NCBI GenBank assembly: GCA_038236365.1
Contig: JBBRZV010000008.1
Coordinates: forward strand, 5,240 to 69,239
Reading direction: 5' to 3'
DNA length: 64,000 nt
Source: Actinomycetales bacterium
GTDB lineage: Bacteria; Actinomycetota; Actinomycetes; Actinomycetales; Dermatophilaceae
Part shown: positions 1-16,429 of the stretch, in pieces
How positions within the stretch are numbered: the stretch's first letter is position 1
Layout of the letters: every line of letters begins with the position of its first letter
Made by a program: the position numbers and the translations under genes
Notes under the pieces: model-generated
Databases searched by the model: none
Told to the model about the DNA's origin: nothing
What the model saw: only the letters and a program-made list of their open reading frames with translations

Positions 1-495
1 GTCGGGGACAAGACCGAATACTTCTTCAGCAATGACGAAGTGTTCAAGACTGGGTTCGAGGCGACACTGCGCAACGCCTACTCCAGCTTGTTCGAAGAGA
101 TGGGCGACGAAGCCCTGGGCGCAGGGAAGGACGACTTAGCCCACTGGTTCCGCGGGTCCGACAAGACCTCGGACCTGGTCGGGCAGCGCCAGGCAAACAC
201 GTTCCAGACCCTCGCCAAGGTGTCCGGGCACGGCGAACTTCCTGCCGTTCGCGCCAATGGGGCGGCCAAGAAGACCGCCATGCCACCCGGGACGGCTGCG
301 GCGGCCAAGAAGACCACGGCCAAGAAGACCGCGATGAAGGCCACCGACACGTCTGGTGGCGGCGGCGGGGTCCATGTCAACAATGGACCGGACGTGGGGC
401 TGACCGTGCGCATCGAGGTCAACCTGCCGCCGGGCGGCGACGCCGACACGTACGACGCGATCTTTGCGAGCATCAAGAAGCACCTGATGTCGTGA
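1..495 (+). CDS. DUF5343-like protein, 5'-truncated by the window edge
   Basis: Frame 1 is open from base 1 (VGDKTEYFFSNDEVFKTGFEATLRNAYSSLFEE...TFQTLAKVSG). It has an AKKT-rich linker encoded by 3x ggccaagaagacc (about 264-330). The C-terminal tail is LTVRIEVNLPPGGDADTYDAIFASIKKHL. The family call is from memory of the motif pattern. The stop overlaps the next start (GTGA at 492-495). Confidence 0.5.
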   Translation, partial: VGDKTEYFFSNDEVFKTGFEATLRNAYSSLFEEMGDEALGAGKDDLAHWFRGSDKTSDLVGQRQANTFQTLAKVSGHGELPAVRANGAAKKTAMPPGTAAAAKKTTAKKTAMKATDTSGGGGGVHVNNGPDVGLTVRIEVNLPPGGDADTYDAIFASIKKHLMS

Positions 496-1007
496 GCGGG
501 CTGCTGGACCGCTTCGAGCGCATCGCGCGGTCTGTCGGCGCCGAGCAACAGGCCGAGGCTCCAGTGGGTTCCCCGTCTCTTGCCGACTTCTTCGCCGAGC
601 GCGATGAGCCGCACCCGTTCGAGTCGCGGAACATCCACCCCGACCTGCCGCCGATGGTGCGGCACCTCTTCGACGACGGGTACTGGGAGCAGTCGGTGTT
701 CGAGGCGTTCAAGTTCATCGATATTGAGGTCAGGCGCCTCAGCGGGCTGAAAGGCAAGACGGGCTACGCCCTCATGATGGACGCCTTCAGCGAGACCAAC
801 CCCAACATCTCACTCAACGCGCTCGGGACACAGTCACAGGTCGATGAGCAGAAGGGCTACAAGTTCATCTTTGCCGGGGCCGCAACGGGGATCCGCAACC
901 CGCGCGGGCATGAGGTTGACATCGGCGACACCCCCGACGAGGCCTTGGACTACCTCGCCCTCGCTTCCCTCTTGATACGCCGCCTGGACGCCGCTGGCCT
1001 GCGCTAA
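492..1007 (+). CDS. Ymh/TIGR02391-like protein with an R-x4-H (HEPN-type) motif
   Basis: 171 aa. The motif GIRNPRGHEV gives R135-x4-H140 (nt 894-911), preceded by conserved-looking FEAFKFIDIEVRRL and YKFIFAGA blocks. It is translationally coupled to the upstream ORF. Confidence 0.6.
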   Translation: MSGLLDRFERIARSVGAEQQAEAPVGSPSLADFFAERDEPHPFESRNIHPDLPPMVRHLFDDGYWEQSVFEAFKFIDIEVRRLSGLKGKTGYALMMDAFSETNPNISLNALGTQSQVDEQKGYKFIFAGAATGIRNPRGHEVDIGDTPDEALDYLALASLLIRRLDAAGLR

Positions 1008-1090
1008 GCCTCCGCTGGTGCGGTTGCTGGGAAGGCGTGCTTCGGGGTCTAGGACAACCCGTTTCGCCGATGTCATGTGATCTTTAAACT

Positions 1091-1240
1091 ATGAACGAAA
1101 CTCTAACGGCGCGTGCGCAGTTGGCTTCTCTCAGCCGCTGGCGGCCGGACGACAAGGCGTCCTTGCAAGCAGCGAGGGATCGCTTGCTCGTCGCCAAGAT
1201 AAGAGCCCTGCTGGCCCCTGCCACCAAGGAGGCGTCGTGA
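1091..1240 (+). CDS. Small hypothetical protein (49 aa), first ORF of a coupled chain
   Basis: ATG at 1091 translates to MNETLTARAQLASLSRWRPDDKASLQAARDRLLVAKIRALLAPATKEAS. It falls below the ORF-track size cutoff. The stop overlaps the next start (GTGA, 1237-1240). It shares an AAR..AKIR..KEA block with the 3680 ORF. Confidence 0.35.
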   Translation: MNETLTARAQLASLSRWRPDDKASLQAARDRLLVAKIRALLAPATKEAS

Positions 1241-1485
1241 CCACCGAGCCGTACCGCTACGCCAGTGGTGACCTCCACGGCGAACCGGACCCCGTCAAGT
1301 ACCCCCCGATCCCCGACCTCGCGATGGCTCCGTCACCGCCGCGAGGTCGGACCGCCAACAACTTCGCCCGGCGCGCCATCCGCGCCAAGACCGACCCTCA
1401 TTGGAGAGAGCGCAGCGCAGAGAGCAAGCGCCTCCTCCTGGCCCTTGACGCCGAAGACGAGCGCCGCCAGCGGGGTGGCAAGTGA
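1237..1485 (+). CDS. Hypothetical protein (82 aa)
   Basis: ORF track. It has 4-nt overlaps with both neighbours (GTGA at both ends). Confidence 0.45.
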   Translation: MTTEPYRYASGDLHGEPDPVKYPPIPDLAMAPSPPRGRTANNFARRAIRAKTDPHWRERSAESKRLLLALDAEDERRQRGGK

Positions 1486-2300
1486 CTACCGCCGCAACGA
1501 CGCTCACCGCGTGTCGCGTCTGTGGCGTGGCCACCGATCAGAACGTCGAGGTGCGGGAAGGCAGAACACCGGCTGGACACCGTGACGCATCCAGCGACTA
1601 CTCGGTCGGTACGTGCGCGACGTGTCAGACGCTGGACACGATCACGCCGGGTGCCGCCGTGAGAGCCTGCCTGCGGCTGCTTGGCAAAGACGAGGCCGTG
1701 TGGCCCGCTTTCTCAAAGGTGTTGGAGGACAGGGAGATCGACGCCGCCGCTGTCCTGTTCGAGGTAACTGGCAACCCGCGTCGCGGCGCTCAGCGAACTG
1801 CCTTCCATCACGTACCAAGGGAGGTCAAGGCCGAACTCCGCCGAGGTTGGGCAGCCGTGTTGGAAGCGAGGGTCGATGCTTCGCTGCCGCCCCTCGCTCC
1901 CACACCGACAGGCCCACCGGAAGGCTCCCCGCCTGCCTGTCTGAGTTGCGGGGCGGCAACCGCCGTGGAGTGGCATGGTCCGCTGCACACGTTCGGCTTG
2001 ATGCGCGGGCCAGATCCCGTCGAGGGCTACGTCTGTCCCGACTGCGCGGTGTCCTTGGAGGCGGTCGGCGCGGTCGGCCAGCCGTTCGTTGAGCGGGCCG
2101 TGATGCAGGCGAAGGGTCTTGACCGGACCCCAAGGGTGCGCGCTTGGGTCGCAACGGGGCTGCCTCCGCAGGACACGCCCTGGGGATGGGTCGACACCGC
2201 AGAGTCCGCGATCACCCTCGACCCTTGGACAGCGATGATGGAGGCGGTCGCCGTGCTGACCGAGCGGGTCGACGGGCTGGAGAGGCGGCTGGACGGGTGA
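1482..2300 (+). CDS. Hypothetical protein with two Cys4 zinc-ribbon-like motifs (272 aa)
   Basis: Cys pairs are CRVC...CATC in the N-terminal part and CLSC...CPDC in the C-terminal part. It is coupled to flanking ORFs by GTGA overlaps. Confidence 0.6.
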   Translation: MTTAATTLTACRVCGVATDQNVEVREGRTPAGHRDASSDYSVGTCATCQTLDTITPGAAVRACLRLLGKDEAVWPAFSKVLEDREIDAAAVLFEVTGNPRRGAQRTAFHHVPREVKAELRRGWAAVLEARVDASLPPLAPTPTGPPEGSPPACLSCGAATAVEWHGPLHTFGLMRGPDPVEGYVCPDCAVSLEAVGAVGQPFVERAVMQAKGLDRTPRVRAWVATGLPPQDTPWGWVDTAESAITLDPWTAMMEAVAVLTERVDGLERRLDG

Positions 2301-2482
2301 GCGAGTTCTGCGGCGACCTGACCTGTGCGGGGCGAATTCAGGTGTTCCTGATGCTCCCCAACGATGCTCAGATCAGCGAGCCCTGCCCGCAGTGCGTGGC
2401 CGCGCTTGCCGACCTGTTGCACGTCGATCACGCCGTGACCATGCGGGAGATCCACCGCGCCGTGACCGTGGGCCAACTTTGA
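2297..2482 (+). CDS. Small Cys-rich hypothetical protein (61 aa)
   Basis: GTG at 2297 overlaps the preceding stop. Translation is VSEFCGDLTCAG...EPCPQCVAALADLL. The ORF-track version (2144) has an unlikely Arg/Gly-rich extension that overlaps the upstream gene. Confidence 0.4.
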   Translation: MSEFCGDLTCAGRIQVFLMLPNDAQISEPCPQCVAALADLLHVDHAVTMREIHRAVTVGQL

Positions 2483-2664
2483 TCGCCGACAAGGAGGTCA
2501 TCACCTTCTTCGAGCCGGGCGCAGCGGACGCGATCCAGCGCTTCATCGCCTGGTCAGGCGAGGACACGGTCTACGACATGGGGCTGATCGACGGGCACCT
2601 CCACCGCTACCGCGTCGATGCGGCGCTTTGGCGTTCGTACGTCAGGGAGCGGACAGCGCGATGA
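2479..2664 (+). CDS. Small hypothetical protein (61 aa)
   Basis: TTG at 2479 overlaps the preceding stop (TTGA). Translation is LIADKEVITFFEPGAADAIQRFIAWSGEDTVYDMGLIDGHLHRYRV. The stop overlaps the next ATG (ATGA). Confidence 0.4.
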   Translation: MIADKEVITFFEPGAADAIQRFIAWSGEDTVYDMGLIDGHLHRYRVDAALWRSYVRERTAR

Positions 2665-3149
2665 GCTCCATGCAGTCTCGCTGCCAGTGCGGGCTCATCG
2701 ACCTCACGGTCAAGATCGCCGAGCATCAAAGCGAGACCGGCCACTTCGACCGCGTAGCGATGTGCGGCAAGGGCCTCCACGAGATGACGCCCGAGAACAC
2801 GGGCATTCAGAGGGACCGAGGGCGCACGTTCTGCAAGGCGTGCAGGCGAATCCGCAGGCATGGCATCAGGGTTGCCGCCGGGAAGTGCCCGGCCGGCCTG
2901 CACTCGTGGGCCAACCCCGACAACGTCTATTCCACCCCAACCGGCCAACGTCGATGTCGCCCTTGCTGGCTCAAGGCGAAAGAGACGCGCGCCAAGGCAG
3001 CGCTGGACGCGGCTGCCCTCGCCGCGACCTACCCCGAGGTCGAGCGGATAGTCACGAGCCTGCCCAGCCGCATCGTCCGGCCGCCCGGCGGGGTGGGCAC
3101 TGAGGCCGACGCGCGCTACCGGCTGGCAATGAGGGTCAGGGGGCTGTAA
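2661..3149 (+). CDS. Zinc-finger protein with HNH-like repeats (162 aa)
   Basis: ATG at 2661 (ATGA overlap). The N-terminus has a C-x-C-x11-H-x5-H motif. Two repeats have the form GLH(E/S)..PEN/PDN...G.R.C..C, reminiscent of actinophage HNH/zinc-binding proteins. Confidence 0.55.
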   Translation: MSSMQSRCQCGLIDLTVKIAEHQSETGHFDRVAMCGKGLHEMTPENTGIQRDRGRTFCKACRRIRRHGIRVAAGKCPAGLHSWANPDNVYSTPTGQRRCRPCWLKAKETRAKAALDAAALAATYPEVERIVTSLPSRIVRPPGGVGTEADARYRLAMRVRGL

Positions 3150-3289
3150 AGAGCGCTGTCCACTCTGGCCCGCTCTCTGCCCATCTCTGGCCGGGTGGCG
3201 TCGGGTGATGCCACCGTCCAGCGGGGTGCGCTGTGGCCCGACTCGTGTGATCTTTGACCTGGGACGCAACATTGCTGTCGCCGTCTCAG

Positions 3290-3319
3290 GCCCCGCCGGG
3301 AATGGATCACCGGCGGGGC
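3290..3319 (+). terminator. GC-rich hairpin downstream of the small-ORF operon
   Basis: gccccgccgg / ccggcggggc forms a 10-bp perfect stem with a 10-nt loop. There is no clear U-tract, so function as a terminator is uncertain. Confidence 0.35.
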
Positions 3320-3679
3320 ATCACTTTGTCCGCGACTCGCCCGAGCGCGGGGAAAAGTTTTCCGCAACTTTCGTCACGCGCCGAGATTCAAACGCGCAGG
3401 TCAGGGGACTGCGGGCTCTTAGCCCCAGTAGTTAGACCGCAGAACGCAGTTCGCGGTCAGAGACCCCTGACGCAGTGGGTAGAATCGATCTTGTGCCACC
3501 CCGACACTGAGGGGGCGGAGTAACTAGGGCCAGCCACGGCCAAAAGTGCGAGGCACCGAAGGCGCTGAGAGCCCAGATCCAGGGCGGTGACCAGCGCCGG
3601 GCGACAGCAGGGCTCGCAAGAGTCGCGGAATGAGGCGTCGGACAGAACCTCCCGTGTCGATCTGACACAAGGAGTTCCG

Positions 3680-3901
3680 ATGCCCAAGCACGATCCCACC
3701 TTGCTGGCTGCCAGCGCCGCCCACGCCCGTGCCGCCCGCACTGGCGACCCAAAGAAGATCAAGGCTGCCCGCACCGCCCTCAACGAGGCCAAGATTCGCT
3801 CGTGGGTTGAGCGGACCTTGAAAGAGGCACCACCCAACCTGTCCCCGGCAACCAAGGCAACGCTCGCAAGGCTGCTCGTGACCACGGACGCTGCCCGATG
3901 A
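3680..3901 (+). CDS. Small hypothetical protein (73 aa), first gene of the replication block
   Basis: ATG at 3680 is preceded by aaggag. Translation is MPKHDPTLL...NEAKIRSWVERTLKEAPPNLSPATKATLARLL. The stop overlaps the next start (ATGA). Confidence 0.5.
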   Translation: MPKHDPTLLAASAAHARAARTGDPKKIKAARTALNEAKIRSWVERTLKEAPPNLSPATKATLARLLVTTDAAR

Positions 3902-4176
3902 GCGCCGCGCCGATGACCCTCGAACTCGCTCCGGGCGTCGACCCGCAGTATCTCGGTTACGCCGTGACCAACCGTGTGACCCGCATTGACGGCTGGACCC
4001 TTTACACGGTTGACGGTGACGAGCCGGGCTGCCGCATCTTGACCGCTGACGGCTCAACGACGCTGCTGGGCTGGCTGCACGGGTCCATGTGCCCGATGAC
4101 TGGCGGCGGCAAGTGCGCTGGCGGGACACCACGAACGGAACCGAGCGGCCAACCAGACCAAGGAGAACGACCGTGA
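3898..4176 (+). CDS. Hypothetical protein (92 aa)
   Basis: ORF track. It is coupled to both neighbours by 4-nt overlaps. Confidence 0.5.
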   Translation: MSAAPMTLELAPGVDPQYLGYAVTNRVTRIDGWTLYTVDGDEPGCRILTADGSTTLLGWLHGSMCPMTGGGKCAGGTPRTEPSGQPDQGERP

Positions 4177-6479
4177 GTAACCCCTACGCCGAGGCTGCGC
4201 CTGGGTACCTGCGACTCGGCCACTCGCCAATCCTCTTGCCCCACAAGAGGAAGAGCCCACCGCCGACCGGCTACACCGGCTACAGCGGCGCGTACGTGAC
4301 GGCCGACGACGTCGAGCGGTGGGCGGAGAAGGGCGGCAACGTCGGCCTGCGCCTGCCCGAGACGGTGATCGGCATTGACGTCGACTGCTACGACGGCAAG
4401 AAGGGTGCCGAGACGATCGCGGAGGCGGAGGCCCGACTGGGCGCGCTGCCCGACAGCCCTGTCATCACGTCCCGCGACGACGGCTCTGGCATCCGGCTGT
4501 TCGGGGTCGAGGCTGGGCGCTGTTGGGCCGACGTCGTTGGGCCGGGCGTGGAGATCATCCACCACGGGCACCGCTTCGCCGTCGCGCCGCCGAGCGTCCA
4601 CCCGGAGGGGCGTGTCTACGGCGGAACGGTGTTGCCCGTGGACGCCCTGCCCGAGCTGCCGGATGCGTGGGTGACGGATCTGGTCCGGGGCAACGCTGCT
4701 GACCGACCCGTCAAGGTCGAGACCGACGTGGAGGCGTGGCTCGACGCGCTGCCTGAGGGCGAGCCGACCGACTACCTGAGGCGGGTTCTCGCCGAGGCCG
4801 ATGACGCCTATCTGCTCGGTGGCTCGCGCCACGGGGTTGCCGCGAAGGCGACGGGCGCGCTGATCCGCGCGGGTGAACGCGGGGAGCCTGGCGTCGCAAC
4901 GGCGCTCGGTATCTGCAAGGAGACGTGGCTGGCTGCGATGGACGGCGACCGCGCGGGGCTGGTCGAGGGTGAGTGGGCACGGATGGTGTCTGGGGCGGTG
5001 GGGCTGGTGCTTGGCAGCCCGACGCAAGGGCCAGAGCAGGACTTTCCGGTGATCCCTGGGCCGACCCCGCCACCTCCGGTCAACAGCGGGACGGGCGGCA
5101 CACCGCCGCTCGCGGTGCGGCTGAGGCAGCGCGTCGAGGCCCACTACGACGTGTTCCCGGCGGGCGACGACGGCCGGATCTTCGTGCAGCCCAAGAAGGG
5201 TGGCCGCGCGGAACTGCTGACGGGCGGGTTCGTCATCCGAGCCAGCCAGGGTGCCGGAACGCAGGCGGGCACGCTCAGCGCCGCCGCGACCGAGGCCGCC
5301 AAGGTGCTTACGGCCCATGCCGAGGTCAAGCCGCCGCGACCGCTTGCACTCCGGGTCCACCCCGCGCCCGACCGCATCGTCCTGGACCTCGCGCAGCGGG
5401 GCAACAGCCGGTGCGTCGTTGTTACCGGAGACGGTTGGACGGTCGAGGACGTGCCGCCCGCCGACGTGCTGTTTCAGTGGCCGGGCAAGCCCTTGCCGGA
5501 CCCTGAGCCCGGTGGTGACGTGGATGAGTTGCGGTTGCTGCTGCGGTGGGCGGAGGACGACCCGCGCTGGGCGCTGATCAAGGGCTGGCTGCCGTGCGCC
5601 CTGCTCGCAGACGTCCCCCGCCCGCTGCTCGGGTTCTTTGGCCCGCAAGGGTCAGCCAAAAGCACGACCGGCCGGTTTGTTGTTGGCGTCCTCGACCCCA
5701 AGCCGAGCGGCGCGCTTGGCAGCGGGTTCGGCAAGAACCGCTCCGACGATGAGACCAAGGCGTTCGCGTCCTACCTCGTCGCGTGGGACAACGTGTCGAA
5801 GGTGTCCAACGAGGGCGCGGACCTGCTGTCCAGGCTTGTCACGGGCGACATGATCGAGAAGCGACGGCTCTACACCGACGCCGAAGTGGCGACGATCGTG
5901 TACCGGCGCACTGGGGTCCTCACTGGGGTCTCGCTGCCGCGCGGGGTCAAGGCCGACACCCTCGACCGCCTGATCCTGATCACGCTGCAGCCGCTGGTCG
6001 AGCGGGCCAGTGAGCGGGCATTGGAGGCCGAGTGGGCGAAGGCGCGCCCGCGCGTCCTCGCCGGGGTCCTTGACCTTGCGGTGCGGATGCTGGCTGGTGA
6101 GCGGGCCAACCCCGACCGACTCCGCATGGCCGACTACGCAGAGGCGTTGTGGGCGATCGACCCGGACCTGTACCGGGCCTACGCCGCAAACGTCCGGGAG
6201 GCCCGAGCGGAGATGGCGAGCGAGGACCCGTTCATCGCCACGCTGCTGGCGTGGCTGGGCGAGGAACCGGGGCAGGAGTGGGAGGGCACCGCCACGGAGG
6301 CCCTGCACGCGGCAGAGTGGCACCACGAGGATCGCGGCTGGTGGCCGTCCAACGGCAAGACGTTCATGGACACCGTCACGGCGAGCCTCGAACTCCTCCA
6401 GGAGGTCGGCGTCACCGTGACCGAGCGCAAGGTGAAAGGTGTGCGGCTGAAGCAGTTCTCGCTCGACCGCCTGCTGTGA
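4173..6479 (+). CDS. Bifunctional DNA primase/polymerase (Prim-Pol) with a C-terminal P-loop NTPase; element replication protein
   Basis: GTG at 4173 overlaps the preceding stop. The N-terminus has GLRLPETVIGIDVDCYDGKKG (DxD) and EIIHHGHRFAVAPPSVHPEG. Walker A is FFGPQGSAKST and Walker-B-like is YLVAWDNVS. Confidence 0.85.
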   Translation: MSNPYAEAAPGYLRLGHSPILLPHKRKSPPPTGYTGYSGAYVTADDVERWAEKGGNVGLRLPETVIGIDVDCYDGKKGAETIAEAEARLGALPDSPVITSRDDGSGIRLFGVEAGRCWADVVGPGVEIIHHGHRFAVAPPSVHPEGRVYGGTVLPVDALPELPDAWVTDLVRGNAADRPVKVETDVEAWLDALPEGEPTDYLRRVLAEADDAYLLGGSRHGVAAKATGALIRAGERGEPGVATALGICKETWLAAMDGDRAGLVEGEWARMVSGAVGLVLGSPTQGPEQDFPVIPGPTPPPPVNSGTGGTPPLAVRLRQRVEAHYDVFPAGDDGRIFVQPKKGGRAELLTGGFVIRASQGAGTQAGTLSAAATEAAKVLTAHAEVKPPRPLALRVHPAPDRIVLDLAQRGNSRCVVVTGDGWTVEDVPPADVLFQWPGKPLPDPEPGGDVDELRLLLRWAEDDPRWALIKGWLPCALLADVPRPLLGFFGPQGSAKSTTGRFVVGVLDPKPSGALGSGFGKNRSDDETKAFASYLVAWDNVSKVSNEGADLLSRLVTGDMIEKRRLYTDAEVATIVYRRTGVLTGVSLPRGVKADTLDRLILITLQPLVERASERALEAEWAKARPRVLAGVLDLAVRMLAGERANPDRLRMADYAEALWAIDPDLYRAYAANVREARAEMASEDPFIATLLAWLGEEPGQEWEGTATEALHAAEWHHEDRGWWPSNGKTFMDTVTASLELLQEVGVTVTERKVKGVRLKQFSLDRLL

Positions 6480-6486
6480 GCCTCGG

Positions 6487-6842
6487 GGTGGCGCACTAGG
6501 GTTTCCTGCGCCACCCCTGCGCCACCTGCGCCACCCTTCCGGTGCCCGCGCGGTGCGCCACGTGCGCCACCCCTGACCTCGGGGTGGCGCAGGGGGTGGC
6601 GCAGGGGTGGCGCGGGCTGGGTTCCTGCGCCACCCCCTGCACACCCGTGTTTGCCAAGGTCAGGGGCAGGTGTTGGGGCGAGGCCGTGCCACAGGTGGCG
6701 CAGGTGGCGCACTGTGCGGGGGGCTTCGGAACGGTCCCACCCTTCTGTTCGAAGCATCATTTTAGAAAAGTAGAAGGAACGAGAGTGGCCACCGTTGGGG
6801 TGCCATCTGACGGTGCCCGCGCGGTGCGCCACCTGCGCCACC
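6487..6842. repeat. Iteron array: 14 copies of GGTGGCGCA/TGCGCCACC in both orientations
   Basis: Forward copies are at 6487, 6583, 6595, 6606 (8/9), 6694 and 6703. Reverse copies are at 6507, 6518, 6527, 6554 (8/9), 6563, 6626, 6825 and 6834. A 35-bp direct repeat occurs at 6540-6574 and 6811-6845 with 1 mismatch. An AT-rich patch (6751-6780) is about 33% GC. Confidence 0.8.
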
Positions 6843-6902
6843 CCGGCGCTTTGGTAGGCCGATGTCGCCGCTGACCGGGAAGCCCGGCAAGGAAACTGTC
6901 GA

Positions 6903-6922
6903 GAGGTGTCAAGAGGTGTCAA
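6903..6922 (+). repeat. Tandem 10-bp repeat gaggtgtcaa x2
   Basis: The repeat is seen directly, just right of the iteron array. Confidence 0.6.
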
Positions 6923-7110
6923 CTCGCGGTTTGCTTCGTGCTCAACGGCGCTCGATCCGTGCTCGAACGGCCGTCTCTCGGTTCGAGGCTCGGCAAAAGG
7001 CTTGCGCCGCTTGGTCTTTTCCTCGCACCCTGGCGCGACCGCGTCCGCGCTCCGCCCGTGCTCAGCGCACCATCAACCGTAGCTGCTGTCACCGTGCCAG
7101 CCATACCGGC

Positions 7111-7158
7111 TGCTCAGTCGTCGGGGAACAACTCCCTGCAGTAGCCGACGACTCAGCA
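7111..7158 (+). promoter_or_regulatory. Long hairpin upstream of the lipoprotein gene
   Basis: tgctcagtcgtcgg / ccgacgactcagca forms a 14-bp stem with 1 mismatch and a 20-nt loop. Confidence 0.4.
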
Positions 7159-7223
7159 TGCTCCGATTCTGCTGGTGTCCGAGCGGTGTAGCCTGCGGCG
7201 CACAACCGCCAAAGGGGGCTTTC

Positions 7224-7793
7224 TTGTTGACGTCACGTTCAGCGCTTGGGTGCCGCTCCCGCCGCGGCAGAGGATCTCTCGTCGCAGCGGGTGTCGCGGT
7301 TGCCCTCGCCGCGTCCGCTTGCGGTACCTCGGCCGGAAGCGGCGCAGCGAAAACGACGCAGACAGCAGTCGTGACCACAACCGCGGCTGCTACCCCAGAG
7401 CCACCGGCTGCAACGACCGATGATTCACAGGTCGCTATGCGCCAAATCCTGAGTGCCGTTTCGACCGCCAAGGCTCAACTTGCCCAGTACCAACAGGACC
7501 TCCATGCCATCTGTCTAGGCTCCGAATCCAAAGGGTGTTGGACTGCTCTCCGCTACTCCAAGACCGTCGGTACCGAGATGATGAACACCCTGGGACCGGT
7601 GCCCCAACGACCAGCCGAAGTGGCTGACCTCTGGGACAGGACCTTTGGGACCGCGGTCGCGCTGATGGCCCTTGGTGATACTTGGTGTGCCTCTGGGCGG
7701 GACTTCAATGGCTGTTACTCCCACGCGTTCGGGACGGTCCAGAGGCTGACTCAGCAATTTGCCGGTTGGGATCCTTACCTCACGCCGGGTTAG
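7224..7793 (+). CDS. Secreted lipoprotein of unknown function
   Basis: TTG at 7224 or 7227 lies after aaggggg. The signal peptide and lipobox read ...VAAGVAVALAASAC-G, followed by a Thr/Ala-rich linker and a Cys-containing C-terminal domain. Confidence 0.6.
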   Translation: MLTSRSALGCRSRRGRGSLVAAGVAVALAASACGTSAGSGAAKTTQTAVVTTTAAATPEPPAATTDDSQVAMRQILSAVSTAKAQLAQYQQDLHAICLGSESKGCWTALRYSKTVGTEMMNTLGPVPQRPAEVADLWDRTFGTAVALMALGDTWCASGRDFNGCYSHAFGTVQRLTQQFAGWDPYLTPG

Positions 7794-8593
7794 ACCGCCG
7801 CGTCGCGTTTGGCGAGTTCGGACCTCAGGGCGCGAACCTCGGCGGTCAGGTCAACGATGTCGGCGCGCGTGGTGGCCTGAGTCTGCTCCTCGACCTCGCG
7901 CACCTTGTCAAGAAGCCATGTGGCGAGAGAGGCGGTCACGATGCCCAGCAACGCGATCCCAGCAAGCATGAGCCCACCAGCAATGAAGCGGCCCTCAGCG
8001 GTGATCGGGTAGCGGTCGCCGTAGCCGACCGTCGTCACCGTCGTCATCGCCCACCACAACGCGTCGCCGAACGTCGTGATCGTCGCGCCCTTGGCGTGGC
8101 GCTCAGCCTCAAGGACGGCCAACGAAGCGACGAACAGGATCAGCGATGTTGACCCTGCGACGTAGACCGCGACGCGTCCGCGCAGCGAGCCGCCCGCGTG
8201 ACGGTTCAGGATTGACAACAACGCCACCAACCGCAGCAACCGCAAGGGGCGCAGCATCGGCAGGGCAACGGCTGCAAGGTCCAGGACGTTGCCGCGAACG
8301 AACGCGGACCGGTCGCCGGACAGGCTGAGTCGGGCGATGTAGTCCACGACGAACAGCGCCCACGCCGCCCAAGTCACGAACTGGCAGATGGCTGGCAGCG
8401 GGTCGGCCAGGCCGGGGTTCAGGATCGGCCAGGCATACGCAATGAGGAACAAGACGGCCGCAGCAGTCAGCGGCCAGTCGGCTTTGGCCTCCCAACGCTG
8501 GCGACGGAACTCACCGCCGGGACTGAGCAGCAGGTCCGCTTCATCCATCCCCATGCCGGTGAGGCTAGGGCCGTCTGGTTTCCGCCGTGACAT
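7790..8593 (-). CDS. Voltage-gated-type K+ channel (ion transport family)
   Basis: TTVGYGD is the K+ selectivity filter. An S4-like segment reads LRPLRLLRLVALLSILNR. There are six hydrophobic segments and a C-terminal coiled-coil-like tail. The ATG at 8593 (MSRRKPDG...) is preferred over the ORF-track start at 8695. Confidence 0.85.
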   Translation of the reverse strand: MSRRKPDGPSLTGMGMDEADLLLSPGGEFRRQRWEAKADWPLTAAAVLFLIAYAWPILNPGLADPLPAICQFVTWAAWALFVVDYIARLSLSGDRSAFVRGNVLDLAAVALPMLRPLRLLRLVALLSILNRHAGGSLRGRVAVYVAGSTSLILFVASLAVLEAERHAKGATITTFGDALWWAMTTVTTVGYGDRYPITAEGRFIAGGLMLAGIALLGIVTASLATWLLDKVREVEEQTQATTRADIVDLTAEVRALRSELAKRDAAV

Positions 8594-8655
8594 CGCCCCT
8601 GCTTCTGAACAGCAGAGAGCCCACCACGAGCAACCGTGGTGGGCTCTCTGAGCGA

Positions 8656-10107
8656 TCATGCGCGCCAGACAACCCCCAGCCTCTTGGGCGTCCACGGCGA
8701 CCCGCGACGGTCGGCCTTGGCCACCACCACGGCCTCCACAAGCGAGTCGACGACCGCCCGCTGCCGGTCGATGTCCAGCGTCGGGAACGCCTCAGCGCTT
8801 GCGACGATCAGCCGTGTTGGGGCAGTTGGCCTTTCGCGCTCCAGCTTGGCCTGCTCGGTCTCCAGCGCCTGCACCTGAGGGAAGATGATCGCGCCGGACA
8901 GCACGCCAGCGTTGAACGCCTGCATCAGTTCTGCGATCTGCTTGGGGATGGCCCGCAGGCGTGCCTCGCCCTCCCACTCAGCCGCCTTCACCGGCTCAGC
9001 GGACAGGTCGATGGTCGCCAGCCGCTGCTCCACGAGCGTGACGATCAGCGCGTCTGTCTGGCGCCCTGCGATCGTGACGCTGTGCCCCTTGCCCTCTGAC
9101 GAACAGGCGTACGCGTGCCCCTGTTTGGTCCTGAACCCGTGGCACTTGCTGCCGCACACGCCACAGCGCAACAGGGTGCTCAGCAGGTAGCGCTGAGCCC
9201 CGCGTCGCGTCTTGGGCCTGGTCCCGTCGAGGGCACCCTGCAGTGCCGCGAACGTCTCCTGGTCGACCATCGGCGTCCAGACCCCCTTGACTGGTTGGCC
9301 GCTCGCGTCGCGAGCGATCGCCTTGTCGCGGCCAGCGTGCCCACTGCCCTCCTGGTGCTTGGTGATCGCGTCGTTGGTGCCCAACAGGTCGCACATCGCG
9401 CACTTGAACTGGTGCGTGCGCCAGCCAGCCAGCCTCGCGTTCCGGAGCACCTGCCGGACGTTCGTGTGCGTCCAGGCGTTGCCGAAGGTGGTTGTCACGC
9501 CAGCAGCGTTCCAGCGTCGTGCGATCTCGTGCGTCGACGCGCCGTCGAGGATATCCTGGATGGCCTTCCGCAGCATCCGGCTCTCCTTGGGTTGGAGCGA
9601 CTTCTTGTCGTCGCCCCACCCGAACGGTCGCGTGCCTTGGTTCACCGCGCCCTTCTGCGCCTTGGCGAGAAACGCCCGCTTCAGCCGCTCAGCGGTCCGT
9701 TCCGCTTCCGCCTGATCGACGCTGGCCTTGATCTGGGCCACCATCCGGCCGTCCGCTGTCGACAGGTCGTCGTTGCCGCTGACCACCGTGTGGATCAGAA
9801 CCCCTGTCTGGTCGTGGAGTTCGATCAGGTCCAACAGTTCTCGCATCCGCCGCGTCAGCCGCGAGTTGCTGTACGCCACGATGACGTCGATCGTGCCCGC
9901 GCGGACGGCCGCGAGCATGGCGTCGTACTGCGGCCGTGGCTTCTTCGACAGGGACGACGCGCTGATGTCGTTGTCGACGTACGGCGGCTCGACCAGCGTC
10001 CAGCCCTCCCGCTTGACGAGGGCTCGGCAGTCCTCCTCCTGCCGGGCGACGCCGAGCCCCTCCTGCTCGGCGTCGCGGCTGATCCGACAGTAGATCGCGG
10101 CTCGCAT
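8656..10107 (-). CDS. Large serine recombinase (integrase)
   Basis: The N-terminal resolvase domain has AAIYCRISRD (catalytic Ser), plus a recombinase domain, a zinc-ribbon (LLRCGVCGSKCHG...YACS) and a coiled-coil C-terminus. Confidence 0.9.
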   Translation of the reverse strand: MRAAIYCRISRDAEQEGLGVARQEEDCRALVKREGWTLVEPPYVDNDISASSLSKKPRPQYDAMLAAVRAGTIDVIVAYSNSRLTRRMRELLDLIELHDQTGVLIHTVVSGNDDLSTADGRMVAQIKASVDQAEAERTAERLKRAFLAKAQKGAVNQGTRPFGWGDDKKSLQPKESRMLRKAIQDILDGASTHEIARRWNAAGVTTTFGNAWTHTNVRQVLRNARLAGWRTHQFKCAMCDLLGTNDAITKHQEGSGHAGRDKAIARDASGQPVKGVWTPMVDQETFAALQGALDGTRPKTRRGAQRYLLSTLLRCGVCGSKCHGFRTKQGHAYACSSEGKGHSVTIAGRQTDALIVTLVEQRLATIDLSAEPVKAAEWEGEARLRAIPKQIAELMQAFNAGVLSGAIIFPQVQALETEQAKLERERPTAPTRLIVASAEAFPTLDIDRQRAVVDSLVEAVVVAKADRRGSPWTPKRLGVVWRA

Positions 10108-10310
10108 CAGATGCTCACCCGCTGTGGACGGCCATCGGCGACATCGCCGCTGGTCACCACAACGTCGCCGGGCAGGTACCAGCCGCCAGCGACACGCTCC
10201 ACACTGAACGCTTCGCCGTCCGCTGTCACGACACGGGCCACGGTGCCAATCGGCAAGGCTTCCAAGGCTGTCTCCAAGGTGGTCGGGTCAGATGTGTCTA
10301 GGTTGTGCAT
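10107..10310 (-). CDS. Small hypothetical protein (67 aa) upstream of, and overlapping, the recombinase start
   Basis: ATG at 10310 is preceded by gagaggga. Its stop overlaps the recombinase ATG by 1 nt. Confidence 0.55.
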   Translation of the reverse strand: MHNLDTSDPTTLETALEALPIGTVARVVTADGEAFSVERVAGGWYLPGDVVVTSGDVADGRPQRVSI

Positions 10311-10356
10311 GGTCGGTTCCCTCTCGTGCTGGAGCCTAGCACCGGGTTAGTGCATC

Positions 10357-10980
10357 TTGCTCCTGGACGAGGCTCCGGAGTTCAAGCCTGGCGTCCTGCA
10401 GGCTCTGCGCCAGCCGGTCGAGTCCGGTGAGGTGGTCGTGGCGCGAGCCTCAGGGGTTGTCAGGTACCCAGCGCGTTTTCAGCTGGTACTCGCGGCCAAC
10501 CCGTGCCCGTGCGGGCGTGGCGTCGGCAAGGGCATCGACTGTTCCTGTTCGCCGCGTGCCCGGCGCGACTACATGGGCAAGCTCGCAGGGCCGCTGCTGG
10601 ATCGGGTGGACCTCCAGCTGCAGATGCGTGCCGTCTCCAGGGCGGGCCTGTTCGCGCCCGTCGGCGAGAGCAGTGCCAGCGTTGCCGCACGCGTTGCGAC
10701 GGCAAGGGGTCTGCAGGCTGAGCGCCTCGCCAACACACAGTGGCGGCTCAACGGCGACGTTCCGGGCCCGATGATGCGTGAGGGTTTCTTGAAGCTGCCC
10801 ATGGCCGCCACCGTGGATCTTGAGCGCGCTCTGGAACGCGGGGTGCTAACCCTTCGCGGCTATGACCGGGTTCTCAAGATCGCATGGACCGTCACTGACC
10901 TTGCGGGTGGCGGAGCGCCCAACCGAGGCGACGTCGGACTGGCTCTGACCTTGCGCACCCAGTCGGCGGTAGCGGCATGA
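10357..10980 (+). pseudogene. comM: 3' fragment of the comM/yifB (Mg-chelatase-like AAA+) gene, split by the element
   Basis: It begins at the Walker B region (L)LLDEAPEF and continues QALRQP(V/L)ESG..V..AR....YPARFQLVLAANPCPCG. Only ~205 C-terminal residues are present. An in-frame TAG lies directly upstream. Confidence 0.8.
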
Positions 10981-12113
10981 GTGTGCTTTTGCGAAGCAGC
11001 CTCCTGGCCCAGGATCGCTTTGCGCGAGCGGCATGGAGCCGCGTGGCAGAGCCTGGCGACCCTGTTGCCGCCAGACTGATCCGGACGCATGGTCCGGTGG
11101 CTGCGCTCGTTCTGGCGGCTTCGGGCATCGAGCCGGCCGCCCAGCGTTTCCTGCCCAGACTCGAGGTCCTCGACGTTGAACGAGACCTTGAGGTAGGGGC
11201 CAAGTTCGCTGCCCGCGTGGTCTGTCCCGGCGACCCGGAGTGGCCGCACGGTCTCGACGACCTTGAAGCGCCGCCCTATTGCCTCTGGGTTCGTGGACCG
11301 GTTGATCTTGCGGCGTCCTGTCATCGCAGTGCGGCAGTGGTGGGAGCCCGAAGCGCCACCGCCTATGGCGAGATGGTGGCCACCGAGATGGCCGCCGGAC
11401 TCGGGGAGCGTCGATTCACGGTCGTCTCTGGCGCAGCCTTCGGAATTGACGCAGCAGCACACCGTGGTGCCCTTGCCACCGCGGCGACCACAATTGCCGT
11501 GCTGGCCGGCGGGGTCGAACGTCCTTATCCCTCGTCGCACGCCGCCCTGATCGCCCGAATTGTCGAGGTCGGTGCGGTTGTCAGCGAAGTGGCACCGGGG
11601 TCGGCACCCACGAAAACCCGGTTCCTGCAACGCAATCGAATGATTGCAACAATGAGCCGTGGGACTGTGGTGGTCGAGGCCGGCTTGAGGTCGGGCTCGT
11701 TGAACACGGCCCGCACCGCCGCTGATCACGGTCGAGTGGTGGTGGCGGTGCCCGGCCCGGTGACGTCCATGATGTCCGCGGGATGTCACGAGGCGATCCG
11801 GTCCGGGATGGCGCAGCTCGTGACGGACGCCCCGGAGGCGGCGGAGGCCATCGGGGACTATGGCAGCGACCTCGCTCCGGTCCGTCGTGGGCCGACCATG
11901 GCAGGGGACGAGCTCGACGAGCTCGAAGTTCGACTGCTCTCTGCCCTACCTGTCCGCAAGGGCGTTCCGGTCAGTCGACTGGCCGTGTCATCCGGGCTCT
12001 CGGTCGCCGAGGTCAGGTCGTTGCTCGGAAGACTGGATCTGTGCGACCTGGCCGAACGCCATGGTGAGGGCTGGCGACAGGGCCCGGCGGCCCGAAAGGC
12101 TCGCGCTCTCTGA
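10977..12113 (+). CDS. dprA: DNA-processing protein DprA
   Basis: Motifs [18 protein letters not shown] and FLQRNRMIA are present. The ATGA overlap with the comM stop matches conserved synteny. Confidence 0.9.
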
Positions 12114-12151
12114 GAACGTGCGTCCTGAGCGAGGACACGGCGATCGGAGGG

Positions 12152-13108
12152 GTGGATGTCCTTGCTGATTGCTCGTGGGCTTGTCAGCGTGAGGTGGTGC
12201 ACGCAGACTTCCCCGAACCGATCGAGGCCTTCGCTCGGCATCTCCGCCTCGAGCGGGGTCGGTCCGTGCACACCCAACGGGCTTATGTTGGCGACGTCGG
12301 CAACCTGATGGCCTTCGCCGAAGGGCACGGGATCCATGACCTCTCCCGGCTGAGGCTTTCTGATCTGCGGTCCTGGCTGGCCCATCAGTCTGAGGACGGG
12401 GCGGCGCGAGCGACCATCGCGCGCCGGGCTGCGTCGGCGCGAGCGTTTTTGCGTTGGGCGACCCGTACTGGGCTGATTGAGGCCGACCCGTCCCTGCGTC
12501 TCGTGGCGCCCAAGCGTCTCCAGTCGCTTCCGGACGTGCTCAAGAAGGATGAGATGACCACCTTGCTGGACCTCGCTGCTGTGGCCGCAGACGACCAGGA
12601 GGCCCTGCATCTGCGGGACCGCGCGATGTTGGAGCTCTTGTATGCCACGGGTATTCGGGTTGGTGAGCTGGTGGGCCTGGACAGGGACGACGTCGACTTC
12701 GGCTCCAACGTCGTCCGGGTGATGGGCAAGGGAGCCAAGGAGAGGACGGTGCCCTTCGGCGGCCCTGCGGCTGAAGCGCTACAGGGTTGGCTCACGCTGG
12801 GTCGGGGCCAGGTGGTCTCCGCTGTGAGTGGCGGGGCCCTGTTCCTCGGGCGACGAGGTGGCCGTGTCGACCCACGTCAGGTCCGCGGCGCGGTCCACCA
12901 TCTGTTGCAGTACGTCCCTGAGGCACCGGACATCGGACCACACGGGCTGAGGCACAGCGCGGCCACCCACCTACTCGAGGGCGGTGCCGACCTTCGCGCG
13001 GTCCAGGAGATGCTCGGCCACGCCAGTCTTGCCACGACGCAGATCTATACCCATGTCTCGGTCGAGCGTCTCAGGCGCTCGTACCTGCAGGCGCATCCCC
13101 GCGCCTGA
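12152..13108 (+). CDS. xerC: Tyrosine recombinase XerC
   Basis: [12 protein letters not shown] is present, with catalytic-region motifs [17 protein letters not shown] and [15 protein letters not shown]. The true start may be the GTG at 12194. Confidence 0.9.
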
Positions 13109-13158
13109 TCTCCGCCGTTCTTGTCTTCGGGCCGTCCGATCTGTGAGCCGCGCTCGTC

Positions 13159-13782
13159 TCAGCCGAGGGGCAGAAGAACTGGCCGGCCAAGACCCAGCAA
13201 GGACAGGGGATCCCGGTAGTCCTCTCCGGAGATGGCCCCCCAGTGAAGGCAGTGAAGGGGCACGCAGTGACCGGGTTCGTCGGAGAGGACGCCGACCGGG
13301 GTACCTCGGCGCACGAATGTGCCGGATGCCACGCGCTCTTCAACCGGCTCGTATGTGGTGCGGATCCTATCGGAATGTTGAACGGTGAGAACTCCTCGGC
13401 CCGCGACGACTCCCGAGAAGGCCACGATGCCGTCTCCCGCGCTGAGCACCGGTTGGCCCACGGTCGCCAACAGGTCGACGCCGCGGTGACCTGGGGACCA
13501 CTGGTCTCGGGGCTGATCGAAGGGTCGAAGGACTGCAGGCCGTGGGGACAACGGCCAAGTGAAGTCAAGGCGAAGTGTGGCCCGCGTCATGACAACAGTC
13601 GAAGTTGAAGCGCCCGTAGCACCATCCGCGGCTGCGTTGGCCGACGTGATCACTTCGGGGTTGGCGACTTGTTCCGAGGCGGTCGGTGCCGATCGTGGAC
13701 GGGCAGCAGGTACAGATGATGTAGCGGTCAACCCCAACGCCGTGATGACGGCGGCCGAAGCCGCGAGGACAAGGAGCTGCAT
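13159..13782 (-). CDS. M23 family peptidase (secreted)
   Basis: It has a signal sequence, HRGVDL and a C-terminal HLHWG-type (HCLHWGA) motif. Confidence 0.8.
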   Translation of the reverse strand: MQLLVLAASAAVITALGLTATSSVPAARPRSAPTASEQVANPEVITSANAAADGATGASTSTVVMTRATLRLDFTWPLSPRPAVLRPFDQPRDQWSPGHRGVDLLATVGQPVLSAGDGIVAFSGVVAGRGVLTVQHSDRIRTTYEPVEERVASGTFVRRGTPVGVLSDEPGHCVPLHCLHWGAISGEDYRDPLSLLGLGRPVLLPLG

Positions 13783-13939
13783 GGGCTCAAGATCCCTCCT
13801 CGACGGCTATGGCGACGGCCAGCGATGCTTTCCTGTGCACGATCACCGAGTCCGGCATACCCCTGTGGACAGTTGCGGCTGGCTCAGCAATCGGCAGCCC
13901 GGTCAGCGCGTGGCAGGCGCAGGACCAGTGGCCGCCGGG

Positions 13940-15103
13940 TCAGCGCGAGGCGAGCACGCCCAGCCGTGTGACGGCCTCTTCGAGCACCTCATCGCGCTTG
14001 CAGAATGCGAAGCGAACGAGGGACCTCGCTGCGTCCTTGTCGTCGCACAGGACGGAGACCGGGACCCCGACCACACCACACAGCGCGGGCATCCTGCGAC
14101 AGAACTCGAGAGCATCGCTGACTCCGAGAGGGGCCGCATCGGCGATCACGAAGTAGGTGGCAGAGGGCCGGGCCACTTCAAACCCGGCAGCGGAAAGGCC
14201 CTCGCACAACAGGTCGCGTTTGGCCTGCAACGACGATGCCGCCCCGTGGTACACGTCATCGCCCAGGCCCAGTGCCACGGCGATCGCTGGCTGAAACGGC
14301 CCGCTCGCCACGTAGGTCAGGAACTGCTTGACCGTTCGGGCCGCGGCCACTGCAGCAGGGGGTCCGTGAAGCCACCCGACTTTCCACCCTGTGGCCGAGA
14401 ACGTCTTGCCTGCGGACGAGATGGTGATGGTGCGTTCCGCCATGCCAGGCAGGGTCGCGACCGGAATGTGCTGCACGCCGTCGAACACGAGGTGCTCGTA
14501 GACCTCATCAGTGACCACCCAGGCGTCATGCTCGCGAGCCAGTGAGCAGATCAGGTCCAGCTCGGCCCGTGTGAAGACCTTGCCGGTGGGATTGTGAGGC
14601 GTGTTCAACAGGACCAGGCGGGTCCGCGGGGAGAACGCCGTTCTCAGGGACGCTTGGTCGACCTCAAAGTCTGGAAAACGCAGCAGGCAAGTGCGGCGCA
14701 CGGCTCCAGCCAGGGCGACCGTGGCGGCATACGAGTCGTAGTACGGCTCGAACATCACGACCTCGTCCCCTGGTTCGCACAGCGCCAGGATCACGGCGGC
14801 GATGGCCTCGGTTGCGCCGGCGGTGACCAGGATCTCGCCGGACGGGTCGACCGACAGCCCGTAGAACCGTCGCTGGTGCTCAGCGATCGCGGTCAGGAGC
14901 TCGGGCACCCCGGCGCCGGGCGGGTACTGGTTGCGTCCGGAGCTGATCGCGTCGATCGCAGCGTCGAGCATCTCCCGCGGTCCGTCGGTGTCCGGAAAGC
15001 CCTGCCCGAGGTTGATCGCGCCCGTGCTCAGCGCGAGTGCGCTCATCTCGGCGAAGATCGTGGTCCCAAAGCCCTGCATGCGGGCAACCAGCGGATTTCC
15101 CAT
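13940..15103 (-). CDS. Class I/II PLP-dependent aminotransferase (387 aa)
   Basis: The ATG at 15103 (MGNPLVARMQGFG...) was verified in the DNA. Motifs LNTPHNPTG and SSAGKTFSATGWKVGW (PLP Lys) are present. The 854-aa ORF-track version is an artefactual upstream extension across rpsB. Confidence 0.85.
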   Translation of the reverse strand: MGNPLVARMQGFGTTIFAEMSALALSTGAINLGQGFPDTDGPREMLDAAIDAISSGRNQYPPGAGVPELLTAIAEHQRRFYGLSVDPSGEILVTAGATEAIAAVILALCEPGDEVVMFEPYYDSYAATVALAGAVRRTCLLRFPDFEVDQASLRTAFSPRTRLVLLNTPHNPTGKVFTRAELDLICSLAREHDAWVVTDEVYEHLVFDGVQHIPVATLPGMAERTITISSAGKTFSATGWKVGWLHGPPAAVAAARTVKQFLTYVASGPFQPAIAVALGLGDDVYHGAASSLQAKRDLLCEGLSAAGFEVARPSATYFVIADAAPLGVSDALEFCRRMPALCGVVGVPVSVLCDDKDAARSLVRFAFCKRDEVLEEAVTRLGVLASR

Positions 15104-15331
15104 GTCCGGCAGGCTAGCCGTAACATGAGCACACCACAGGTCTGTCTTTCGGCGGATCGGTGGAATTCGCGCGTCTACTTGCCGTCGCTCGCCTCTCGAG
15201 GCCTGTATGACGGGCCCGCACCGCCGCAGTCCCGGATCCTTCGGGTGGGGTGCGCTCGCAGGCGCCAGGCACGAGACCGGCAACCCGCCGTGCTTGTGGA
15301 TAACTGGAACAAATGAAAGTGAGACCACGGC

Positions 15332-16429
15332 ATGGCCGTCGTCACCATGCGTCAGCTCCTCGAGAGCGGCGTCCACTTCGGGCACCAGACCCGTCGATGG
15401 AACCCCAAGATGAAGCGCTTCATCATGACCGAGCGCAATGGCATCTACATCATTGACCTGCAGCAGTCGTTGACCTACATCAACGATGCCTACGAGTTCA
15501 TCAAGGAGACCGTCGCCCACGGCGGCACCATCTTGTTCGTCGGCACCAAGAAGCAGGCCCAGGAGCCCATCGCCGATCAGGCGACCCGCGTCGGTATGCC
15601 GTACGTCACGTACCGCTGGCTCGGTGGCATGCTCACCAACTTCAACACGATCAGCAAGCGCCTGTCCCGTCTGAAGGAGCTCGAAGAGATCGACTACGCG
15701 GACGTTGCTGGATCCGGCCGGACCAAGAAAGAGCTCCTCGTGATGAAGCGCGAGAAGATCAAGCTCGAGAAGACCCTCGGCGGCATCCGCGACATGTCCA
15801 AGATCCCCTCGGCCGTGTGGATCGTGGACACCAAGAAGGAGCACCTCGCCGTCACGGAGGCGCGCAAGCTCAAGCTCCCGGTCATCGCGATCCTCGACAC
15901 GAACTGCGACCCGGACGAGGTCGACTACAAGATCCCCGGTAACGACGACGCGATCCGTTCCGTCACCCTGCTCACCCGCGTGGTCGCCGATGCAGTCGCT
16001 GAGGGCCTGATGGCTCGCGCGGCGGCCCGTGGTGGCGGCGCGGCGGCCGAGGAAGGCGTCGTGGCTGTTGACGAGCCGATGGCCGAGTGGGAGCGCGAGC
16101 TCCTGGCTGGCGCTGAGGCTCCGGTTGCTGAGGCTCCGGTTGCTGAGGCTCCGGTTGCTGAGGCTCCGGTTGCTGAGGCTCCTGCCGCTGACGTCGTCGC
16201 TCCAGATGCCGAGGTCCCTGCTGTTGAGAGTCCGGCAGCTGAGGTTTCTGCCGCTGAGGTCGCTGCTGCTGAGGCTTCCGTTGCCGAGGCTGCCGCTGCT
16301 CAGGCTTCCGTTGCCGAGGCTCGTGCCGCTGAGGTCACCAAGGCCCGTGAGGCTGAGGTCGCCAAGGCTCGTGCCGCTGAGGCTCCTGCCCCTTCCCCTG
16401 CTCCAGCCGCTGAGGTCCCCGAGGCCTGA
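15332..16429 (+). CDS. rpsB: 30S ribosomal protein S2 with a long Ala/Glu/Val-rich C-terminal extension
   Basis: Translation begins [27 protein letters not shown]. The C-terminus has the AEAPV repeats. Confidence 0.95.
16112..16186 (+). repeat. Tandem 15-bp repeat gctgaggctccggtt (4 perfect copies plus 1 degenerate) inside rpsB
   Basis: The repeat is seen directly and encodes (AEAPV)x4. It is followed by degenerate A/E/V repeats up to the stop. Confidence 0.9.

Follow-up and report, generated by a model that had tools for sequence, protein, structure and literature searches.

Ribonucleases (RNases) of the HEPN superfamily often serve as effectors in bacterial immunity and in addiction modules, and both its Ymh branch and the DUF5343 family of proteins are without experimental characterisation. 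We examined a gene pair made up of a DUF5343 gene (open reading frame 1, ORF1) and a Ymh gene (ORF2), which stands at the left edge of a 64-kb stretch of DNA, here called the window, from an Actinomycetales bacterium (GCA_038236365.1, contig JBBRZV010000008.1). On solid grounds, the pair can be annotated as an uncharacterised but already catalogued candidate, its DUF5343 member being PADLOC PDC-M34A. Judged from sequence, its most likely role is that of a toxin-like module for defence or addiction. Specifically, we favour, with a probability of about 0.6, the reading that the two genes, coupled in translation, together make up a self-contained conflict module that travels as mobile-element cargo and in which Ymh is the RNase effector or toxin and the DUF5343 protein is its antitoxin-like partner.

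Ymh has been counted among the HEPN families, with Rx4-6H as its conserved motif, and described as occurring in restriction-modification (R-M), abortive-infection (Abi) and mobile contexts and often in R-M operons, in a survey whose sections on the family describe solo proteins as well as fusions to paraMORC, AbiJ-NTD1 and AbiTii and which adds that some HEPN domains are non-catalytic binders (PMC3710099). The pair examined here agrees with that account in PF09509 membership, in the Rx4-6H motif and in its R-M, Abi and mobile association. It departs from it in the partnership with DUF5343, which is not among the solo proteins and fusions named in those sections.

The PDC systems are presented, in the part of a preprint that defines them, as 145 untested candidates that lie within BREX, DISARM or type I R-M loci, and PDC-M34 is listed there as a two-family cassette with a count of 97 (Payne et al. 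2024, bioRxiv 10.1101/2024.01.29.577857). ORF1 and all tested relatives match the PDC-M34A model over its full length, with E-values of 1e-20 to 1e-30 (for ORF1, E = 1.1e-20, profile positions 5-208 of 208). Whereas the cassette is defined, according to the same part of the preprint, inside BREX, DISARM or type I R-M loci, the pair here is cargo of an integrative element. The B family of the cassette is FAM_01657, and no model named PDC-M34B matched ORF2 or nine other Ymh partners. As a DUF5343 gene is followed by a Ymh gene in every locus checked, PDC-M34B may be the Ymh protein. No paper found in our literature search mentions DUF5343, PF17278 or PDC-M34 in its main text.

PD-lambda-3, from Vassallo et al. 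in 2022, has reportedly been validated by experiment as an abortive-infection system. Behaviour of this kind is described for it (PMC13190303), and it is reported to include a PD(D/E)XK nuclease domain (PMC10952713). In its B protein the last ~130 residues align with the Ymh domain of ORF2 (PADLOC model PD-Lambda-3_B, E = 4.8e-17, positions 137-263 of 270), whereas the N-terminal ~135 residues are extra relative to ORF2, and PD-Lambda-3_A gave no match to ORF1. Because the partner differs, the pair is not PD-lambda-3. ORF2 also matches the PADLOC model Aga_HEPN (E = 4e-9).

Type II toxin-antitoxin systems with a winged-helix antitoxin, such as AbiEi/AbiEii, share with the pair an overlapping two-gene operon in which the antitoxin, putative here, stands first, but ORF1 has no match to AbiEi relatives in profile searches. 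They are also similar in that the partner has a folded, putatively DNA-binding N-terminal domain and a disordered C-terminal region. The likeness to HEPN-MNT (type VII) systems lies in the HEPN-type toxin, which is putative here; profile search found no MNT nucleotidyltransferase in ORF1, in which respect the pair differs from that class.

Overlapping DUF5343 and Ymh genes

The features of the pair in the window are as follows (coordinates, strand, feature).

1-495, plus strand: ORF1, the C-terminal 164 codons and stop codon of the gene for a DUF5343 protein of 226 amino acids in full, cut by the left window edge
250-393, plus strand: linker of ORF1, residues ~146-193, basic, disordered and AKKT-rich, with GGCCAAGAAGACC repeats at 264-276, 303-315 and 318-330
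394-492, plus strand: C-terminal tail of ORF1, residues 194-226, VGLTVRIEVNLPPGGDADTYDAIFASIKKHLMS, nearly invariant
492-495, plus strand: GTGA start/stop overlap, the GTG of ORF2 (492-494) lying over the TGA of ORF1 (493-495)
492-1007, plus strand: ORF2, 171 amino acids, from Hypoth_Ymh profile matches and an AlphaFold2 model
612-1004, plus strand: Hypoth_Ymh (HEPN-family) domain of ORF2, residues ~41-171, from profile search
894-911, plus strand: R135-N-P-R-G-H140, the R-x4-H motif, predicted RNase catalytic residues, from conservation

The DNA to the left of the window was read from a second locus, L001 (GCA_038328225.1, contig JBBQLV010000001.1; L-numbers denote the loci compared), which was reached by an exact look-up of the ORF2 sequence and whose position 9510 corresponds to position 1 of the window. 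There the full ORF1 gene occupies 9324-10004 and encodes 226 amino acids identical to protein P0001. It starts with a GTG at 9324, preceded by AAGGGGA and located 186 nt to the left of the window, and its first 62 codons therefore lie outside; its final residues are VRIEVNLPPGGDADTYDAIFASIKKHLMS. The 4-nt overlap with ORF2 implies that the two genes are probably coupled in translation. Within ORF2, positions 888-911 encode GIRNPRGH; the codon of R135 is 894-896 and that of H140 is 909-911. An earlier note on this DNA had described the truncation of ORF1 by the window edge, the GTGA overlap, the length of ORF2 with the position of its R-x4-H motif, and three repeats in the linker, and on each of these points it was correct.

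Long ORFs run in all six frames of the window, whose DNA is rich in G+C, and for this reason ORF length alone is weak evidence; likewise, one R-x4-H motif is not improbable by chance and is no evidence standing alone. Both genes are taken as real on the strength of homology, namely Pfam and NCBIfam matches, hundreds of homologues, conservation of the ORF1 tail and invariance of the ORF2 motif. The repeat GGCCAAGAAGACC occurs exactly three times in the 64 kb, starting at 264, 303 and 318, against a chance expectation of 0.01. Searches for other elements returned no sigma-70-type promoter around ORF1 and ORF2, no Rfam family in positions 1-11500 and no tRNA across the whole L001 locus.

An invariant R-x4-H motif in the Ymh protein

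The assignment of ORF2 to Hypoth_Ymh, which the earlier note had made, was borne out by profile search against both Pfam PF09509 (E = 3.8e-31, 107.9 bits against 25, profile positions 1-119 of 119) and NCBIfam TIGR02391 (E = 8.7e-22, 77.5 bits against 39.45). Residues R135, N136, P137, G139 and H140 are 100% conserved among 144 homologues of ORF2, and the IRNPRGH motif (R135-x4-H140) does not vary among the more than 200 homologues compared, which come from Actinomycetota, Pseudomonadota and metagenomes. Among full-length metagenome Ymh partners, R-N-x3-H is kept in 67 of 67, and 60 of them have RNPRGH. Conservation of the R and H residues, on which the earlier note had made its proposal depend, was found in all homologues examined. 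ORF2 thus has the conserved Rx4-6H of the HEPN superfamily, and R135 and H140 are predicted to form the active site of an endoribonuclease that needs no metal; their invariance in every homologue suggests catalysis.

The AlphaFold2 model of ORF2 has a mean predicted local distance difference test (pLDDT) score of 79.5, with an all-helical core (residues ~40-170) above 90. A conserved short helix at residues 4-14 forms the N-terminus and is followed at residues 14-36 (nt 531-600) by an acidic disordered segment. In 99% of homologues this segment has a net negative charge (median -4), and its sequence is not conserved. This negative segment (531-600) and the positive DUF5343 linker (250-393) carry opposite charges. 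Searching the PDB with the ORF2 sequence or profile gave no solved Ymh structure, and one match to SV2C was spurious.

A nearly invariant tail in the DUF5343 protein

The earlier note had likewise placed ORF1 in DUF5343, and the full-length protein passes the Pfam PF17278 cut-off of 27 with 42.7 bits (E = 8.5e-11, profile positions 1-133 of 140). The fragment encoded within the window falls below that cut-off when searched by itself, with 12.6 bits and an E-value of 0.17 in the C-terminal half of the profile. Profile matches of ORF1 are limited to DUF5343 and PDC-M34A.

In the AlphaFold2 model of ORF1 (mean pLDDT 80) residues 1-145 are confident. Residues 10-63 are modelled in the order alpha-beta-alpha-alpha-beta-beta, which is typical of a winged helix, and a five-helix bundle comes after it. 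Residues 149-193 have pLDDT scores below 50. Whatever the clade, at least 98% of DUF5343 proteins have a linker with a net positive charge (median +5 to +7), although its sequence is not conserved. The earlier note had seen a short beta-like tail at the end of the protein; the model instead gives an extended segment and then a helix over the last 16 residues (210-225), not a purely beta tail.

Alignment of homologues reveals high conservation in the N-terminal domain and in the last ~33 residues of ORF1. In the tail the amino acids are kept while synonymous codons vary freely, except that synonymous variation is slightly reduced in the last ~8 codons beside the start of ORF2. Because synonymous sites vary, selection on the tail acts at the protein level, and constraint on the nucleotide sequence is ruled out as the cause of its conservation outside those last ~8 codons. 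We propose, by inference, that the tail is a putative Ymh-binding segment. The layout of the protein as modelled, with a winged-helix-like N-terminal domain, a basic disordered linker and a near-invariant tail, resembles that of a type II antitoxin.

DUF5343 and Ymh genes occur as a pair

A genome scan with one genome per species yielded 24 loci, 23 of them with downstream DNA. Ymh lies directly downstream of DUF5343 in all 23, and an ATGA or GTGA overlap is common to 20 of these. A metagenome scan started from divergent DUF5343 proteins, at about 30-45% identity to the seed, and loci with at least 450 nt downstream were kept; a Ymh gene is directly 3' of DUF5343 in 68 of 68. Ymh also followed DUF5343 in each of the ten further neighbourhoods that were retrieved starting from a DUF5343 protein. 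Adjacent, co-directional, overlapping genes kept as a pair (23/23 and 68/68 loci) are what is expected of type II toxin-antitoxin genes. No locus set has a third gene that is kept together with the pair, and none of the other genes of the window's element is shared by the loci of the genome scan.

The pair spans Actinomycetota and Pseudomonadota, the latter through a proteobacterial clade that includes Litorimonas, Marinobacter, Rheinheimera and Ciceribacter. An actinobacterial-type pair of 63% identity is also present in a locus labelled Rhodothermales (L005), which suggests mis-binning or transfer. By exhaustive profile search, the DUF5343 family comprises 1,292 cluster representatives at 50% identity with E-values of 0.001 or less, 417 of them at 1e-10 or less, and nearly all are stand-alone proteins of 215-240 amino acids. 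By tblastn, ORF2 gave only weak Ymh matches, in Burkholderia phage KS9 and two enterobacterial phages.

Several loci carry altered copies. In Nocardioides ochotonae (L118, 6072-8513) an ISL3 insertion has removed the N-terminal domain of DUF5343. The ISL3 transposase gene stands immediately upstream of what is left of the DUF5343 gene, from which the N-terminal ~55 codons are gone; the annotated ORF corresponds to residues 96-226, that is, linker and tail, and has a 4-nt overlap with an intact Ymh gene. The same truncated arrangement was recovered from a second sequencing sample (L119). Two nanopore-derived metagenome-assembled genomes have apparently degraded copies of both genes, marked by internal deletions in L026 and by frameshifts in L017, where assembly errors are possible. 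The N. ochotonae and L026 variants, which are anecdotes, fit a role for the C-terminal part of DUF5343; they would also fit a Ymh protein that is harmless until activated.

Genomic contexts of the pair

Eight actinobacterial neighbourhoods with Pfam annotation were compared, that of the window among them. Two of the eight, the window's own and that of Nocardioides marmoribigeumensis, are serine-recombinase/Prim-Pol elements. The other six comprise an element with RepSA, a tyrosine integrase and a SNIPE/T5orf172 gene; a locus with a serine recombinase 2 kb from the pair; one with AbiEii, a RiboL-PSP HEPN protein and a 1,772-residue NOV_C protein; one with GmrSD, SNIPE/T5orf172, FtsK and a methyltransferase; one with a tyrosine integrase and HTH_17 genes; and a VapBC/PIN cluster of PIN/VapB pairs with an HNH gene. 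Outside the Actinomycetota, the Marinobacter neighbourhood has Gp49/HTH pairs and an IS200-type transposase. Outside the window, the pair mostly resides in integrative elements, toxin-antitoxin clusters and defence islands, in line with the recurrence in mobile and defence contexts that the earlier note had made a check of its proposal. From these comparisons the pair appears to move independently of any element backbone.

SNIPE/T5orf172 genes, which encode GIY-YIG-type nucleases, lie a few kilobases from the pair in two of the eight actinobacterial loci (L029, 12152-13015; L032, 1826-2188 and 7382-8764).

A putative conflict module and its alternatives

From these features we infer the RNase activity and toxicity of Ymh, its neutralisation by ORF1 and the trigger of the module. 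In the mechanism that we favour, the ORF1 tail, together with the linker, would bind and silence the Ymh RNase, and the N-terminal domain of ORF1 may bind DNA and autoregulate the operon. If the partner were lost, degraded or titrated, on phage infection or on loss of the element, the RNase would be freed to cut cellular and/or phage RNA, and growth arrest, abortive infection or post-segregational killing would result. This reading is supported by the Ymh assignment, the invariant motif, the constant pairing and gene overlap, the architecture of ORF1, the toxin-antitoxin, defence and mobile contexts and the PDC-M34A listing. The pattern of decay also supports it, in that both genes have internal deletions in L026 and N. 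ochotonae keeps the linker, the tail and an intact Ymh gene. Its confirmation would turn two families of unknown function and one PADLOC candidate into a defined system and would add a cargo function to the small comM-targeting integrative elements of actinobacteria, leaving current concepts unchanged.

Several observations weigh against a conflict module of this kind. The R-x4-H motif lies in a loop before the last long helix of the ORF2 model, where confidence is lower (61-73). Foldseek found no significant match of the ORF2 model in the PDB; four of its ten top matches there are HEPN-type (1wol, 2hsb, 2q00 and AbiV 9bj7), with E-values of 2.5-7, probabilities of at most 0.21 and TM-scores, normalised by target length, of 0.33-0.49, where the fold looked for was the four-helix up-and-down bundle of solved HEPN structures. 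The ORF1 model had no significant match in the PDB or in BFVD, its best matches (E = 0.4-2) being the winged-helix and ratchet region of DEAH helicases and regulators of the DtxR/ScaR/FadR type. For both models we regard these weak fold matches as coherent hints, not proof. ORF1 is, at 226 amino acids, large for an antitoxin. No DUF5343-Ymh fusion, which would provide a Rosetta-stone link, was found in the top 150 family representatives, ORF1 had no tblastn match in phage or plasmid collections, and a pattern scan of IMG/VR returned no relative. The Rheinheimera and Ciceribacter neighbourhoods have no obvious defence or mobile genes. Our literature search found no experimental data for DUF5343 or Ymh, and in this it agrees with the earlier note, according to which neither family is known to have a demonstrated function.

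Alternatively, Ymh might be inactive by default, with the winged helix and basic linker of DUF5343 detecting a phage nucleic acid or protein and switching the RNase on. The retention of a basic disordered linker as a property across clades, opposite an acidic N-terminal segment in the partner, would suit such a sensor, as would the truncated DUF5343 gene beside intact Ymh in two N. ochotonae samples, which would be tolerable if Ymh were harmless alone, and the fusion of related Ymh domains to diverse N-terminal sensor-like domains, seen in PD-lambda-3_B and in the fusions listed by the survey's sections on Ymh (PMC3710099). We nevertheless consider it unlikely, since the upstream position of DUF5343 and the 4-nt overlap are classical toxin-antitoxin features, the truncated copy retains exactly the linker and tail, and both genes decayed together in L026. 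A further proposal, which we put forward tentatively and hold to be rather unlikely, is that DUF5343-Ymh is a distinct cross-phylum defence family in which the winged-helix protein, with its basic disordered linker, senses or is displaced by invading nucleic acid and so releases a HEPN RNase held by the invariant tail. If true, nucleic-acid-sensing release of this kind would give HEPN effectors a way of sensing that is new for them, in place of a passive antitoxin.

The invariance of R and H in every homologue, which suggests catalysis, and the occurrence of the pair in unrelated elements and islands, independent of one backbone, both argue against a non-toxic role, regulatory or in RNA processing, in the service of the element. 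In such a role DUF5343 would regulate by binding DNA, and Ymh would be an RNA-binding cofactor, either substrate-specific or without catalytic activity, like MtlR, a HEPN protein that is itself non-catalytic. The winged-helix-like topology of the ORF1 model, the first position of the pair in two related Nocardioides-type elements and the binding without catalysis that the survey ascribes to some HEPN domains (PMC3710099) are compatible with this role, which we consider quite improbable. We give very little credence to the view that the pair lacks autonomy and serves as an accessory to some bigger defence system of several genes, for example R-M, BREX or a nearby nuclease. The definition of PDC-M34 from cassettes inside BREX, DISARM or type I R-M loci, as that part of the preprint has it, the frequent association of Ymh with R-M in the survey's sections (PMC3710099), and the SNIPE/T5orf172 genes near two of the eight actinobacterial pairs point in that direction. 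Against it, no gene accompanies the pair consistently in any locus set, and in the window its left neighbour is the end of the element and its right neighbours are element-specific small ORFs.

The element that carries the pair

The pair in the window is cargo of an element of ~10.8 kb (L001 ~9050-19870, window ~-460 to ~10361), whose left end lies ~460 nt to the left of the window. Its genes are, in order, DUF5343, Ymh, several small ORFs, Prim-Pol, an Ion_trans_2 channel-like gene and a large serine recombinase. The features assigned to it beyond the pair are:

4173-6479, plus strand: Prim-Pol replication gene (PF09250), product of 768 amino acids
8656-10107, minus strand: large serine recombinase (PF00239 and PF07508)
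10355-10365, no strand: approximate right end (attR), from the split comM alignment and the junction sequences

The element interrupts a comM-like gene. Upstream of ORF1 is a gene whose 387-residue product contains the N-terminal part of a Mg-chelatase/ComM-like ATPase, and the 3' part of comM is at 10357-10980 of the window, 10.8 kb downstream of the 5' part. Alignment to an intact homologue places the break at the VLFLDE Walker-B motif, and the reading frame of the 5' fragment continues inside the element for ~76 codons up to a stop codon. The left junction is GTGTTGTTCCTG/TACGATG and the right junction CTTGCTCCTG/GACGAGGCT (the slash marks the boundary), with an imperfect TTG(T/C)TCCTG core in common. 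The pair leads the cargo, on the far side of the element from the recombinase, a position that agrees with the placement at the cargo end of an integrated element that had been proposed in advance. The earlier note's idea that further system genes may be present to the left of the window is not borne out: the DNA there contains only codons 1-62 of ORF1, ~270 nt from the end of the element and the comM gene that it interrupts. Because it has Prim-Pol and a large serine recombinase and no recognisable capsid genes, the element may be a satellite-like or mobilisable integrative element.

The potassium-channel-like Ion_trans_2 gene (7790-8695, minus strand), which lies beside the recombinase, is unusual cargo and has no PADLOC match. 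An ORF of 49 codons (1091-1240, plus strand) follows the A+T-rich stretch TCTTTAAACT and has a GTGA overlap with the next ORF, which starts at 1237; it is absent from the L001 gene calls. In the related element of N. marmoribigeumensis (L027, 10001-20684), a gene of 57 amino acids is called at the equivalent place, so a small gene at 1091-1240 may have been missed.

That element has orf82, orf272, orf61a/b, the Prim-Pol N-terminus and orf67 in common with the window's element and carries DUF5343-Ymh in the same first position. It additionally has genes for a TerL-like ATPase, two resolvase-family proteins and a protein of another HEPN family, DUF4145. Just upstream of it is a T2SSE-like gene of 233 amino acids, which might be the interrupted target.

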